From the IMG/VR virus record IMGVR_UViG_2603880147_000004: a stretch of DNA of 8,331 nucleotides; one strand, written 5' to 3'. Below the pieces are notes generated by a model that worked only from the letters and a program-made list of their open reading frames with translations, made no database searches and was not told the origin of the DNA. How positions within the stretch are numbered: the stretch's first letter is position 1; the number at the start of each line of letters is the position of its first letter. The stretch is from a virus (taxonomy: Duplodnaviria > Heunggongvirae > Uroviricota > Caudoviricetes). Of this stretch, positions 2,325-8,331 are shown one piece after another. The position numbers and the translations under genes were made by a program.

Positions 2325-2342
2325 TGAAAAACATTTTATGTG

Positions 2343-2370
2343 AAACCGCCTCCGGGCGGTTTTATCGTTT
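2343..2370 (+). terminator. GC-rich hairpin followed by a T-rich tract in the I-J intergenic spacer (terminator-like or RNA processing/stability element)
   Basis: AAACCGCC (2343-2350), loop TCCG, GGCGGTTT (2355-2362), then TTTTATCGTTT. Sits between the I stop (2324) and the J start (2385). Confidence 0.4.
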
Positions 2371-2384
2371 ATGGAGCATGACGA

Positions 2385-5300
2385 ATGGGTAAAGGCAGCA
2401 GTAAGGGGCATACCCCGCGCGAAGCGAAGGACAACCTGAAATCACCCAGATGCTGAGCGTGATAGACGCCATCAGCGAAGGGCCGATTGAAGGTCCGGTG
2501 GACGGATTAAAAAGCGTGCTGCTGAACAGTACGCCGGTGCTGGACAGTGAGGGGAATACCAATATCTCCGGCGTCACGGTGGTGTTCCGGGCAGGTGAGC
2601 AGGAGCAGACACCGCCGGAGGGATTTGAATCCTCCGGCTCCGAGACGGTGCTGGGTACGGAAGTGAAATACGACACGCCGATTACCCGGACCATCACGTC
2701 GGCAAACATCGACCGTCTGCGCTTTACCTTCGGTGTGCAGGCACTGGTGGAAACCACCTCAAAGGGGGACCGGAATCCGTCGGAAGTCCGCCTGCTGGTT
2801 CAGATACAGCGTAACGGTGGCTGGGTGACGGAAAAAGACATCACCATTAAAGGCAAAACCACCTCACAGTATCTGGCATCGGTGGTGGTGGATAACCTGC
2901 CGCCGCGCCCGTTCAATATCCGGATGCGCAGGATGACGCCGGACAGCACCACAGACCAGCTGCAGAACAAAACGCTCTGGTCGTCATACACCGAAATCAT
3001 CGATGTGAAACAGTGCTACCCGAACACGGCACTGGTCGGCGTACAGGTGGATTCGGAGCAGTTCGGCAGCCAGCAGGTGAGCCGTAATTATCATCTGCGC
3101 GGGCGTATTCTGCAGGTGCCGTCGAACTATAACCCGCAGACGCGGCAATACAGCGGTATCTGGGACGGAACGTTTAAACCAGCATACAGCAACAACATGG
3201 CCTGGTGTCTGTGGGATATGCTGACCCACCCACGCTACGGCATGGGGAAACGTCTTGGTGCGGCAGATGTGGACAAATGGGCGCTGTATGTCATCGGCCA
3301 GAACTGCGACCAGTCAGTGCCGGACAGCTTTGGCGGCACGGAGCCGCGCATCACCTGTAATGCGTACCTGACCACACAACGCAAGGCCTGGGATGTGCTC
3401 AGTGATTTCTGCTCGGCGATGCGCTGTATGCCGGTATGGAACGGGCAGACGCTGACGTTCGTGCAGGACCGACCGTCGGATAAGGTGTGGACCTATAACC
3501 GCAGTAATGTGGTGATGCCGGATGATGGCGCGCCGTTCCGCTACAGCTTCAGCGCCCTGAAGGACCGCCATAATGCCGTTGAGGTGAACTGGATTGACCC
3601 GAACAACGGCTGGGAGACGGCGACAGAGCTTGTTGAAGATACGCAGGCCATTGCCCGTTACGGTCGTAATGTCACGAAGATGGATGCCTTTGGCTGTACC
3701 AGTCGGGGGCAGGCACACCGCGCCGGGCTGTGGCTGATTAAAACGGAACTGCTGGAAACGCAGACCGTGGACTTCAGCGTGGGTGCTGAAGGGCTTCGCC
3801 ATGTACCGGGCGATGTCATTGAAATCTGCGATGATGACTATGCCGGTATCAGCATCGGCGGGCGCGTGCTGGCGGTGAACAGCCAGACCCGGACGCTGAC
3901 GCTCGACCGTGAAATCACGCTGCTATCCTCCGGTACTACGCTGATAAGCCTGGTTGACGGAAGTGGCAATCCGGTCAGCGTGGAGGTCCAGTCCGTCACC
4001 GACGGCGTGAAGGTAAAAGTGAGCCGTGTTCCTGACGGCGTTGCAGAATACAGCGTGTGGGGGCTGAAGTTGCCGACGTTGCGCCAGCGCCTGTTCCGCT
4101 GTGTGAGTATCCGTGAGAACGATGACGGCACGTATGCCATCACCGCCGTGCAGCATGTACCGGAAAAAGAAGCCATCGTGGATAACGGGGCGCACTTTGA
4201 CGGCGACCAGAGCGGCACGGTGAATGGCGTTACGCCGCCAGCGGTGCAGCACCTGACCGCCGAAGTCACCGCAGACAGCGGGGAGTATCAGGTACTGGCC
4301 CGCTGGGACACGCCGAAGGTGGTGAAGGGCGTGAGCTTCCTGCTCCGTCTGACCGTAACAGCGGATGACGGCAGTGAGCGGCTGGTCAGCACGGCCCGGA
4401 CGACGGAAACCACATACCGCTTCAGGCAGCTGGCGCCAGGGAACTACAGGCTGACGGTCCGGGCGGTAAATGCGTGGGGACAGCAGGGCGATCCGGCGTT
4501 GGTATCGTTCCGGATTGCCGCCCCGGCAGCGCCGTCGCGGATTGAGCTGACGTCGGGCTATTTTCAGATAACTGCCACGCCGCATCTTGCGGTTTATGAT
4601 CCGACGGTACAGTTTGAGTTCTGGTTCTCGGAAAAGCGGATTGCGGATATCAGGCAGGTTGAAACCACAGCACGCTATCTTGGCACGGCGCTGTACTGGA
4701 TAGCCGCCAGTATCAATATCAGGCCGGGCCATGATTATTATTTTTACGTTCGCAGTGTGAACACCGTTGGCAAATCGGCATTCGTGGAGGCTGTTGGTCA
4801 GCCGAGTGATGATGCATCCGGCTATCTGGATTTTTTCAAAGGCGAGATAGGGAAAACCCATCTGGCTCAGGAGCTGTGGACGCAGATTGATAACGGTCAG
4901 CTTGCGCCTGACCTGGCTGAAATCAGGACGTCCATTACGGATGTCAGCAATGAAATCACGCAGACCGTCAATAAGAAACTGGAAGACCAGAGTGCGGCAA
5001 TTCAGCAGATACAGAAGGTTCAGGTTGATACAAATAATAACCTGAACAGCATGTGGGCTGTGAAGCTGCAGCAGATGCAGGACGGACGCCTTTATATCGC
5101 GGGTATTGGTGTCGGTATTGAGAACACCCCTGACGGCATGCAGAGTCAGGTGCTGCTGGCGGCGGACAGGATTGCGATGGTTAATCCTGCGAATGGCAAC
5201 ACAAAACCGATGTTTGTTGGTCAGGGCGATCAGATATTCATGAACGACGTGTTCCTGAAACGCCTGACGGCCCCCACCATTACCAGCGGTGGAAATCCAC

Positions 5301-5863
5301 CGGCATTTTCCCTGACACCGGACGGAAAGCTGACTGCTAAAAATGCGGATATCAGTGGCAGTGTGAATGCGAACTCCGGGACGCTCAACAACGTCACGAT
5401 TAATGAGAACTGTCAGATTAAGGGGAAACTGTCAGCCAATCAGATTGAAGGCGATATTGTCAAAACAGTGGGTAAGGCTTTCCCGCGGGACTCCCGGGCA
5501 CCGGAGCGGTGGCCATCAGGGACCATTACCGTCAGGATTTATGACGATCAGCCTTTTGACAGGCAAATTGTTATTCCAGCGGTGGCATTCTGCGGCGCTA
5601 AACATGAGCGGGAGAATAACGATATTTATTCGTCATGCCGCCTGATAGTGAAGAAAAATGGTGCTGAAATTTATAACCGTACCGCGCTGGATAATACGCT
5701 GATTTACAGTGGTGTTATTGATATGCCAGCTGGTCACGGCCACATGACGCTGGAGTTTTCGGTGTCAGCATGGCTGGTAAATGACTGGTATCCCACAGCA
5801 AGTATCAGCGATTTGCTGGTTGTGGTGATGAAGAAAGCCACCGCTGGCATCAGTATCAGCTGA
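2385..5863 (+). pseudogene. J: Tip attachment / host specificity protein J (central tail fibre), with a frameshift about 20 codons from the start; the long open frame is 2450-5863
   Basis: ATG at 2385 with GGAG at 2373-2376 encodes [20 protein letters not shown], the gpJ N-terminus as I recall it, and hits TGA at 2454-2456 after about 22 codons. The 1137-codon ORF 2450-5863 is in another frame, begins [32 protein letters not shown] (lambda gpJ residues about 23 onward) and has no SD before its ATG. This implies a net 1-bp deletion near 2440-2448. The rest is gpJ-like to about 4840, then divergent. Confidence 0.88.
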
Positions 5864-5881
5864 ATTTTATAACCCATATAC

Positions 5882-5909
5882 GGGCGCCAGAAATGGCGCC
5901 TTTTTTATT
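5882..5909 (+). terminator. Rho-independent terminator downstream of J
   Basis: Perfect palindromic stem GGCGCC (5883-5888), loop AGAAAT, GGCGCC (5895-5900), then TTTTTTATT, 19 nt after the J stop. Confidence 0.75.
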
Positions 5910-5930
5910 GCAGAAAAGCGAGAGGTAATT

Positions 5931-6530
5931 ATGCGTAAAGTTTGTGCAGCCATTTTGTCCGCAGCCATCTGTCTGGCCGTATCCGGTGCGCCTGCATGGG
6001 CGTCTGAGCAGCAGGCCACACTGAGCGCAGGGTATCTTCATGCCCGTACGAACGCTCCCGGCAGCGATAATCTGAACGGGATTAACGTGAAATACCGTTA
6101 TGAGTTTACGGACACGCTGGGGCTGATTACGTCATTCAGTTATGCCAACGCTGAAGATGAGCAAAAAACGCATTACAGCGATACCCGCTGGTATGAAGAT
6201 TCCGTGCGTAACCGCTGGTTCAGCGTGATGGCGGGGCCGTCTGTGCGCGTGAATGAATGGTTCAGCGCGTATGCGATGGTGGGTGTGGCTTACAGCCGTG
6301 TGTCGACTTTCTCCGGGAATTATCTGCAGGTGACCGACAATACGGGGAAAACGCACGATGTGCTGACCGGAAGTGATGACGGTCGCCACAGCAACACGTC
6401 TCTGGCGTGGGGGGCTGGCGTGCAGTTTAACCCGACCGAATCCGTGGCCGTTGATGTCGCTTATGAAGGCTCCGGCAGCGGTGACTGGCGTACCAACAGT
6501 TTCATCGTTGGTGTCGGTTATAAATTCTGA
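5931..6530 (+). CDS. lom: Lom-like outer membrane protein (Ail/Lom/PagC/OmpX 8-strand beta-barrel family), prophage moron
   Basis: 199-aa ORF with SD GAGAGG at 5920-5925 five nt before the ATG. Signal peptide [24 protein letters not shown] then SEQQ. C-terminus [22 protein letters not shown] ends in the aromatic residue typical of OMP barrels and closely matches the lambda Lom C-terminus as I recall it. Internal [12 protein letters not shown] and SVMAGP motifs are also shared. It sits between J and stf as in lambda. Confidence 0.9.
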
Positions 6531-6556
6531 TTAGCCAGGTAACACAGTGTTATGAC

Positions 6557-6583
6557 AGCCCGCCGGTTCAGGCGGGCTTTTTT
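6557..6583 (+). terminator. Rho-independent terminator downstream of lom
   Basis: Stem AGCCCGCC (6557-6564), loop GGTTCA, GGCGGGCT (6571-6578), then TTTTTTGTGG, 27 nt after the lom stop. Confidence 0.75.
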
Positions 6584-6594
6584 GTGGGGGGAAT

Positions 6595-8331
6595 ATGGCA
6601 GTACGGATTTCAGGTGTACTGAAAGATGGCGCAGGTAAGCCGATACAAAACTGCACCATTCAGCTAAAGGCCAGGCGCAACAGCACCACGGTGGTGGTGA
6701 ACACAGTGGCCTCAGAAAACCCGGATGAAGCCGGGCGTTACACAATGGACGTCGAGTATGGTCAGTACAGCGTCAGTCTGTTGGTGGAGGGATTCCCGCC
6801 GTCACACGCCGGGATTATCACCGTATATGAGGACTCAAAGCCGGGCACACTGAATGATTTCCTCGGTGCAATGACGGAGGATGATGTCCGGCCAGAGGCA
6901 CTGCGCCGTTTTGAACTGATGGTGGAAGAGGTGGCGCGTAACGCGTCCGCAGTGGCACAGAACACGGCAGCCGCGAAGAAGTCAGCCAGCGATGCCCGCA
7001 CCTCAGCCCGGGATGCGGCGGCCTCAAAAGAGGCAGCGAAATCATCAGAAACGAACGCATCATCAAGCGCCAGTAGTGCCGCTTCCTCGGCAACGGCGGC
7101 AGGAAATTCCGCGAAGGCGGCAAAGACGTCCGAGACGAACGCCAGGTCTTCTGAAACGGCAGCGGGACAGAGTGCCTCAGCTGCGGCAGGCTCAAAAACA
7201 GCGGCTGCATCATCAGCCAGTGCCGCGTCAACAAGTGCCGGGCAGGCCTCAGCCAGTGCCACCGCTGCCGGAAAGTCGGCAGAAAGTGCTGCATCGTCTG
7301 CTTCAACAGCCACAACGAATGCTGGCGAAGCCGCTGTACAGGCCAGCGCAGCAGCGAGGTCAGCTTCCGCAGCGAAGACATCCGAAACGAACGCGAAAGC
7401 GTCGGAAACCAGCGCAGAATCCTCAAAAACGGCTGCCGCATCGTCCGCCAGTTCGGCGGCGTCATCGGCATCATCTGCGTCTGCTTCAAAAGATGAGGCG
7501 ACCAGACAGGCGTCAGCAGCGAGGGGCAGCGCCACGACGGCATCCACGAAGGCGACAGAGGCTGCTGGCAGTGCGGCAGCGGCAGCACAGAGCAAAAGTA
7601 CGGCAGAATCCGCAGCAACGCGCGCTGAGACAGCGGCAAAACGTGCAGAGGATATTGCATCCGCCGTGGCGCTTGAGGATGCGAGCACGACGAAAAAGGG
7701 GGTAGTACAGCTCAGCAGTGCGACCAACAGCACTTCCGAGTCACAGGCGGCAACGCCAAAAGCCGTTAAGGCCGCGTATGACCTGGCTAACGGGAAATAC
7801 ACCGCACAGGATGCAACGACAGGACAGAAAGGGATAGTTCAGCTCAGCAGTGCGACTAACAGCACTTCCGAGTCACAGGCGGCAACGCCAAAAGCCGTTA
7901 AGGCCGCGTATGACCTGGCTAACGGGAAATACACCGCACAGGATGCAACGACAGGACAGAAAGGGATAGTTCAGCTCAGCAGTGCGACTAACAGCACTTC
8001 CGAGTCACAGGCGGCAACGCCAAAAGCCGTTAAGGCCGCGTATGACCTGGCTAACGGGAAATACACCGCACAGGACGCTACGACAGCACAAAAAGGAATT
8101 GTCCAGCTCAGTAGTGCAACCAACAGCACATCTGAAACGCTTGCTGCGACACCGAAAGCAGTGAAAGCAGCTAATGACAATGCGAATGGTCGGGTACCTT
8201 CTGCCCGTAAGGTGAATGGTAAGGCGCTTTCAGCGGATATAACACTGACGCCGAAAGATATCGGTACGCTTAACTCAACAACAATGTCATTCAGCGGTGG
8301 TGCTGGTTGGTTCAAATTAGCAACGGTAACC
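6595..8331 (+). CDS. stf: Side tail fibre protein Stf, 5' partial (open to the window end, 579 codons, no stop)
   Basis: I translated frame 1 by hand from ATG 6595 to 8331 and found no stop. The ORF track omits it, presumably because it has no stop in the window. N-terminus MAVRISGVLKDGAGKPIQNCTIQLKARRNSTTVVVNTVASENPDEAGRYTMDVEYGQYSVSLLVEGFPPSHAGIITVYEDSKPGTLNDFL resembles lambda Stf as I recall it. An Ala/Ser/Thr-rich low-complexity region follows, then repeated KGIVQLSSATNSTSE..AATPKAVK tail-fibre motifs. G-rich SD-like run at 6585-6590. Confidence 0.9.
   Translation, partial: MAVRISGVLKDGAGKPIQNCTIQLKARRNSTTVVVNTVASENPDEAGRYTMDVEYGQYSVSLLVEGFPPSHAGIITVYEDSKPGTLNDFLGAMTEDDVRPEALRRFELMVEEVARNASAVAQNTAAAKKSASDARTSARDAAASKEAAKSSETNASSSASSAASSATAAGNSAKAAKTSETNARSSETAAGQSASAAAGSKTAAASSASAASTSAGQASASATAAGKSAESAASSASTATTNAGEAAVQASAAARSASAAKTSETNAKASETSAESSKTAAASSASSAASSASSASASKDEATRQASAARGSATTASTKATEAAGSAAAAAQSKSTAESAATRAETAAKRAEDIASAVALEDASTTKKGVVQLSSATNSTSESQAATPKAVKAAYDLANGKYTAQDATTGQKGIVQLSSATNSTSESQAATPKAVKAAYDLANGKYTAQDATTGQKGIVQLSSATNSTSESQAATPKAVKAAYDLANGKYTAQDATTAQKGIVQLSSATNSTSETLAATPKAVKAANDNANGRVPSARKVNGKALSADITLTPKDIGTLNSTTMSFSGGAGWFKLATVT
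7699..8193 (+). repeat. In-frame tandem repeat inside stf: three 132-bp (44-codon) units plus a degenerate partial fourth
   Basis: Units 7699-7830, 7831-7962 and 7963-8094 are almost identical at the nucleotide level. Units 2 and 3 differ only in their last ~24 nt; unit 1 differs at a few positions near its 5' end. Each encodes G(V/I)VQLSSATNSTSESQAATPKAVKAAYDLANGKYTAQDATT(G/A)QK. A diverged copy follows at 8095 to about 8193 (GIVQLSSATNSTSETLAATPKAVKAANDNANGR). Confidence 0.9.

Follow-up and report, generated by a model that had tools for sequence, protein, structure and literature searches.

We found that the lom gene of the 8,331-nt stretch of DNA analysed here (the window) lies between two hairpins followed by T-tracts, and, judged from sequence, both are genuine Rho-independent terminators at which ordinary RNA polymerase is predicted to stop. 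The original prediction had read this layout as a self-contained moron cassette that may be transcribed separately from the late operon, for example in the lysogen. In the reading that we consider probable, lom is instead a passenger insulated within the late operon, and the locus is not demonstrated to be an autonomous cassette of promoter, gene and terminator.

The window covers the tail end of a lambda-like E. coli prophage that sits at the Qin position, and its gene order is L (309-1007), K, I, J (to 5863), lom ORF (5931-6530) and stf (from 6595). The features around lom are as follows.

2450 to 5863, plus strand: J, tail tip gene (context), with Pfam J domains; its 5' end is frameshifted in the window.
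5931 to 6530, plus strand: lom, Ail/Lom-family 8-stranded outer-membrane beta-barrel, 199 residues plus stop, from Pfam, PHROG and PDB matches.
5931 to 6002, plus strand: signal peptide of 24 residues with an A-x-A cleavage motif (ending AWA), followed by SEQQ, read from the translation.
6595 to 8331, plus strand: stf, side tail fibre gene, N-terminal part (context), with Pfam phage_tail_N and Phage_fiber_2; it runs off the window.

E. coli strain 1297KP carries a chromosomal stretch with 100% identity to window 5700-6800, and its prophage is located at the Qin position with tfaQ, pinQ, ydfK and ydfJ downstream. Similar DNA is present in 4814 of 5426 complete E. coli genomes (median two copies per genome) and in 222 phage records, and lom comes after J in most of the E. 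coli prophage copies. The prophage is probably defective, with lesions in I and J. Gene I (1752-2324) contains an in-frame stop at 1881-1883, and RefSeq flags an 'internal stop' in 1297KP as well. The J N-terminus (MGKGSS...) begins at 2385 in another frame, which is lost near 2442, where a run of C is one base shorter in the window than in 1297KP, and the long ORF restarts at 2450. The lom gene is intact although I and J carry these inactivating lesions. Within stf, secondary BLAST alignments revealed internal direct repeats that are ~90% identical (7676-7865 versus 7940-8129), in agreement with its four Phage_fiber_2 repeat matches.

As originally proposed, lom belongs to the Lom/Ail/PagC family. 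Pfam Ail_Lom (PF06316) spans residues 1-199 of 199 (E 9.8e-123; 407.8 bits, cut-off 23), the PHROG match is to family 108, 'Lom outer membrane protein', with E 5e-106, and the lambda Lom structure (9wso_C) matches with E 1.4e-46. The PDB chains of OmpX (1qj8, 2m06) and Ail (3qra) match the mature protein with E ~1e-19 to 1e-20, and this homology begins at residues 25-29. RefSeq names the product of the identical stretch 'Ail/Lom family outer membrane beta-barrel protein'. The C-terminus reads GYKF, with a terminal aromatic F as for outer-membrane insertion. By homology, the product is thus a secreted 8-stranded outer-membrane barrel of the Ail/Lom/OmpX family. It shares 42% protein identity with lambda Lom, and the C-termini are nearly identical. 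The description of a divergent Lom therefore stands, whereas the likeness is confined to about the last 27 residues and a short patch at residues ~48-60 and does not extend over the whole C-terminal half. We also looked for lambda J beside Lom in PDB entry 9wso and rejected it, as the lambda J C-terminal domain gives no match to this entry.

The gene is under purifying selection, with a median dN/dS of 0.22 against 90 distinct relatives. The same PF06316 8-stranded barrel family includes Ail of Yersinia, OmpX of E. coli and Enterobacter, and PagC and Rck of Salmonella, but these are chromosomal or plasmid genes with their own regulated promoters while the lom gene of the window is in a phage late operon. 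Serum resistance, adhesion and invasion are known for Ail, Rck and PagC, and adhesion to buccal cells is cited for lambda Lom in PMC3594210. By analogy with these homologues, the lom product may have a role in adhesion or serum resistance.

The two hairpins and the leader between the upstream one and the start codon are located as follows.

5882 to 5909, plus strand: upstream Rho-independent terminator (predicted), stem GGGCGCCA/TGGCGCCT, loop GAAA, tail TTTTTTATT.
5910 to 5930, plus strand: leader with ribosome-binding site GAGAGGT (5920-5926), invariant, with a nucleotide diversity of 0.000-0.004 among 113 loci.
6557 to 6584, plus strand: downstream Rho-independent terminator (predicted), stem AGCCCGCC/GGCGGGCT, loop GGTTCA, tail TTTTTTG.

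The upstream hairpin (5882-5901) contains 8 pairs, 6 of them G-C, and folds with -15.7 kcal/mol (z -3.1), and the downstream hairpin (6557-6578) contains 8 pairs, 7 of them G-C, and folds with -18.2 kcal/mol (z -3.3). In a terminator scan of the whole window, 6557-6578 and 5882-5901 rank as the top two, both on the plus strand. The scan lists 16 terminator-like sites of all strengths, against 7.9 expected. When strict criteria are applied (at least 6 G-C among 8 uninterrupted pairs, followed by 8 bases with at least 6 T), the hairpins at 5882 and 6557 are the sole sites on either strand of the window, and the chance expectation at this strength is a mean of 0.003 per strand in 2000 first-order Markov simulations. 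Together with their conservation in relatives, described below, this bears out the claim that lom is bracketed by hairpin-plus-T-tract terminators. The gene also has its own good ribosome-binding site as stated there, GAGAGGT placed 4 nt ahead of the ATG. No Rfam family matches the window above threshold. Below threshold, Trp_leader scores 27.3 bits (cut-off 41) at 6503-6585 on the plus strand, over the downstream terminator, whose stem AGCCCGCC...GGCGGGCT we take to resemble the trp attenuator hairpin, and IsrG scores 19.9 bits (cut-off 100) at 7049-7294 on the minus strand, inside stf.

For comparison, viral contigs and species-representative genomes supplied 167 lom loci that could be used; since many of them are closely related, the counts are not independent events. 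A terminator-like hairpin upstream of lom is present in 161 of these loci, ending 25-29 nt ahead of the lom ATG, and one follows lom in 163. Most of the loci that lack these hairpins are distant ail-like genes on Proteus and Xenorhabdus chromosomes. At least eight variants of the upstream stem exist, among them GGGCGCC/GGCGCC, GGGCACC/GGTGCC, GGGCGTC/GACGCC, a stem from Citrobacter and that of lambda, CGTCCG/CGGGCG, which is unrelated. In an alignment of 18 sequences, 93% of the cells of this stem pair, 4 of the 8 pairs show compensatory two-sided changes, and the covariation score is reached by none of 500 shuffles. Among 113 loci, nucleotide diversity is 0.000 in the T-tract and 0.000-0.004 in the 10-nt spacer and ribosome-binding site, compared with 0.075 at fourfold-degenerate sites towards the 5' end of lom, 0.07-0.095 in the arms of the upstream stem and 0.19 in its loop. 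The T-tract also follows the unrelated stems of lambda, the Citrobacter locus and a second allele. The invariant T-tract and the compensating stem together argue for termination and not for a merely stabilising hairpin.

The apex of the upstream hairpin (window 5888-5897), CCAGAAATGG, is swapped for its exact reverse complement, CCATTTCTGG, in 7-8 related loci. The apex is inverted while the stem is kept, as expected from template switching at a palindrome. The downstream hairpin is conserved with little covariation; lambda has one G-U for a G-C. In about 25 loci, lom ends in a different 3' sequence and is followed by a lom-stf spacer of 148 nt that closes with an unrelated hairpin and T7, which sits ~100 nt further on than the downstream terminator of the window. 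In this alternative allele (locus L048 and ~25 others; positions 8638-8788 of locus L182, which is prophage PP6 of strain E2348/69), the last 70 nt of lom are 74% identical. Its spacer folds into two strong hairpins (-49.8 kcal/mol, z -3.65), the second of which is the predicted terminator. It could be a 3'-UTR RNA by its predicted fold, and it has no entry in the E2348/69 RIL-seq tables.

Where a promoter for lom could lie was also considered. Between the end of the upstream T-tract (5909) and the start of the ribosome-binding site (5920) there are only 10 bases, too few for a promoter downstream of the terminator. A scan for consensus promoters on the plus strand over 5600-5930 found nothing. 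The best match by weight matrix is weak.

5844 to 5873, plus strand: best promoter-like match (speculative), -35 CTGGCA, 18-nt spacer, -10 TATAAC, 8.1 bits.

On the same scale, lambda PRM, which is activator-dependent, scores 8.9 bits, bla 8.8 and lacUV5 14.4. Transcription from this candidate is predicted to start at ~5880, at the foot of the upstream terminator hairpin, and its -35 falls in J codons and is weaker in other alleles. Lambda has -10-like sequences (TATAAA/TATTAT) in its own T-tract region, TATAAA scoring 6.5 bits, which the allele of the window lacks. Taken together, these results do not support the promoter of its own that an autonomous cassette would imply for lom. A promoter that is weak, non-consensus, condition-dependent or activator-dependent is possible. 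For lambda lom as well, little is known of the promoter (PMC2147009).

A moron is defined as having its own promoter and usually a deviating G+C content (from Juhala et al. 2000, as reviewed in PMC3594210), and neither was found for the lom gene of the window. Its position does have the character of an extra gene, since J is followed by stf without lom in HK97, and cor follows J in HK022. The HK97 and HK022 morons (HK97 gene 15, HK022 cor) are, like lom, extra genes between conserved tail genes that are followed by a terminator, and lom has a downstream terminator of its own at 6557-6584, as in the 163 loci. The G+C content runs smoothly, with no base-composition anomaly across J, lom and stf (0.48-0.54 in the last 1.4 kb of J, 0.51-0.58 in lom and 0.53-0.62 in stf).

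Two further features of the window bear on the limits of the cassette.

6440 to 6460, no strand: mosaic junction versus lambda, inside lom, with a jump in identity at ~6450.
2340 to 2372, plus strand: hairpin of the I-J spacer, used as a comparator, just ahead of the J ribosome-binding site; weaker U-rich tail, 11-pair stem, spacer -19.8 kcal/mol, z -3.05.

Identity to lambda is ~40-65% before ~6450, 83-97% from 6450 through the terminator, and mostly 80-93% over the first 400 nt of stf, to ~6990. On the other side, alleles with different J C-terminal domains converge ~40-90 nt ahead of the J stop. These junctions lie inside lom and inside J, and consequently the units of exchange do not end at the hairpins. 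In addition, the I-J hairpin is clear on folding, though it was missed by the terminator scan and fails the strict test, and a putative terminator is annotated at the same I-J place in HK97. The I-J hairpin and the J-lom hairpin flank J as well, which indicates that flanking hairpins are not specific to lom; they seem to be a recurrent feature of late-operon spacers and not the mark of a moron. The self-contained moron layout was therefore upheld for the terminators, the accessory slot and the gene family, but not for the promoter, the G+C content, the junctions at the hairpins or, in relatives, the lysogen RNA.

HK97 and HK022 were also considered as a means to tell which terminator was acquired together with lom; in these phages J is followed by unrelated spacers, and no inference was drawn. 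In the HK97 J-stf spacer (4050-4065 and 4141-4157 of locus L185), we noticed the inverted repeats GGAAGGTGCGAATAAG and CTTATTCGCACCTTCC, whose sequence is that of the IS5 end where K-12 has its lomR::IS5 junction (~3600 of locus L181). From this identity, the repeats look like a small IS5-end remnant at the place where lambda has lom.

Published RNA data were available for relatives with the same arrangement. In EPEC E2348/69, the J-lom spacer of prophage PP6 is identical to window 5864-5930, and PP2 has the compensated GGGCACC/GGTGCC version. The values below are DESeq2 baseMeans pooling wild type and hfq mutant (table S2, PMC8550237) from DMEM 'activating' and static LB 'non-activating' cultures.

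PP6 I: DMEM 4.8, LB 1.6.
PP6 J: DMEM 15.0, LB 6.7.
PP6 lom: DMEM 2.0, LB 0.34.
PP6 stf: DMEM 7.0, LB 5.3.
PP6 cargo genes, a few hundred bases past the fibre genes: DMEM 205-455, LB 48-538.

The PP2 values, presumably those from DMEM, are 15.9 for J, 4.8 for lom, 6.2 for stf and 362 for nleH. The PP6 and PP2 lom copies are only 93% identical, and the loss of multi-mapping reads therefore does not explain the low counts. The prophage Perceval of AIEC LF82 has the same layout, a compensated leader and an 87% identical Lom protein. Its lom has 0-8 raw reads in all ten samples (LB, DMEM and macrophage; supplement of PMC9928086) and is not in the moron list of that study. The separate transcription of lom in the lysogen that had been suggested was thus not seen in these relatives: in the few laboratory conditions covered, lom RNA is at the background of the silent tail genes in both E2348/69 and LF82. 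In the last four of the ten LF82 samples, presumably macrophage-grown, stf has 93-264 reads and lom 0-4 (LF82 chromosome 1214920-1217567), and reads also rise on two small genes after stf. This suggests a transcription start downstream of the lom terminator in LF82.

Several other RNA sources were considered and set aside. The Rac lomR of K-12 offered mapped RNA ends, but its J-lom spacer is deleted and the gene is fused to a tape-measure fragment and split by IS5; for the downstream hairpin, the only one kept, the tables of PMC7815308 contain no 3' end at this silent pseudogene. The small RNA '24B_1' near lom of phi24B (PMC4426718) belongs to a different phage type with a different spacer and is irrelevant to the window. 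The Hfq-dependent small RNA PasB of EPEC E2348/69 (4262-4344 of locus L182, NC_011601 1466261-1466343, minus strand) lies antisense within the PP6 I-J spacer, and nothing in the window matches it; this spacer is 240 nt long in PP6, and in the window it is 60 nt to the J start at 2385. We also noticed that, at the J stop and the start of the J-lom spacer of PP2 (NC_011601 765228-765249, minus strand), RIL-seq recorded 14 chimeric fragments in which an antisense RNA piece is joined to RNA of the cueR-region spacer, which may be noise.

In lambda, RNA polymerase modified by the antiterminator Q overrides the intrinsic terminators in the late operon. Those terminators have the same G+C-rich stem and U-tract, on the coding strand and in late-operon spacers, as the hairpins predicted in the window. 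If lom is an insulated late-operon passenger, the upstream terminator, 10 nt from the ribosome-binding site, would stop ordinary polymerase leaving J before it reaches lom, and the downstream terminator would stop polymerase that crossed lom before stf. After induction, polymerase modified by Q would read through both terminators, and lom would be made together with the tail genes. In the repressed prophage, lom would be essentially silent under the conditions so far assayed. Read-through by Q-modified polymerase is proposed here by analogy with lambda biology, and the Q gene lies outside the window.

Lambda lom (NP_040601) is the closest known system, with the same family and the same J-lom-stf (orf-401) order. 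As in the window, lambda has a hairpin and T-tract ahead of the ribosome-binding site and a nearly identical terminator after lom, and from the final 80 nt of lom, across the terminator and 400 nt into stf, the DNA is mostly 80-97% identical, whereas the protein and the upstream stem differ as described above. Expression in lysogens is reported for lambda lom, a textbook moron (PMC3594210, PMC7067206 and PMC1151598; the last two citing Reeve & Shaw 1979 and Barondess & Beckwith 1990), but it was undetected in lysogens in one microarray study (PMC2147009). A lom orthologue of phi24B, in a different genomic context, is equally expressed in lysogens and induced cells (PMC3342100).

These reports give some weight to a classical moron, in which a weak or condition-specific promoter of its own lets lom be expressed while the prophage is repressed, as lambda lom reportedly is; for the window we regard this as doubtful. 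The promoter could overlap the J stop codon (5844-5873) or be activator-dependent, the downstream hairpin would be the terminator of the cassette, and the upstream hairpin an insulator or attenuator. The lambda and phi24B literature (PMC1151598, PMC3342100) favours it, as do the accessory genes that occupy the slot in other phages, the 8.1-bit match, which is similar to the activator-dependent PRM, and the -10-like TATAAA of lambda. The dN/dS of 0.22 and the intact lom beside the lesioned I and J fit a host-beneficial function, which would need expression without induction; purifying selection and an open reading frame kept intact in a decaying prophage thus count against a passenger and favour a weak or condition-dependent promoter. 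However, the candidate promoter starts at the foot of a strong terminator and its -35 is not conserved, there is neither space for a promoter after the terminator nor a G+C anomaly, lom RNA is at background in E2348/69 and LF82, and the lambda microarray study did not detect lom in lysogens (PMC2147009).

The upstream hairpin could also act as an attenuator, which we consider unlikely. Transcripts from the weak promoter at 5844-5873 over the J stop would then be attenuated by the covarying hairpin with its invariant U-tract, together with the equally invariant 21-nt leader next to the ribosome-binding site, and lom would be released only by antitermination through phage Q or an unknown host cue. 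If true, this would account for the early reports of expression in lysogens as well as for the silence in modern transcriptomes.

It is also unlikely that the hairpins are chiefly RNA elements, which would either stabilise the J and lom segments of the processed late transcript at their 3' ends or protect lom mRNA as a 5' stem-loop. Q-modified polymerase would ignore terminators and a role in lytic RNA decay is conceivable, compensation maintains the stems, and the predicted start of the weak promoter places the hairpin at the very 5' end. A stabiliser needs no U-tract, yet the T-tract is invariant over the 113 loci and stands behind unrelated stems as well, and both hairpins have the canonical geometry of strong terminators. 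That the hairpins are functionless chance palindromes is practically negligible as an explanation, as only the general abundance of weak hairpins speaks for it, while the strict-site count with both sites in spacers and on the coding strand, and the conservation and covariation across divergent alleles, refute it.

The gene family, the position, the textbook moron status and the flanking terminators are already known or annotated, and for lom as a textbook prophage accessory gene present in most E. coli genomes, our analysis adds practically nothing new. No promoter of lom has so far been defined (PMC2147009); in this common allele there is no room for one beside the conserved terminator, and lom RNA is at background in two pathogenic strains. 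In summary, the layout of this locus calls for caution in that a gene flanked by terminators is not for that reason an autonomous cassette, as the spacer ahead of J has a similar hairpin.
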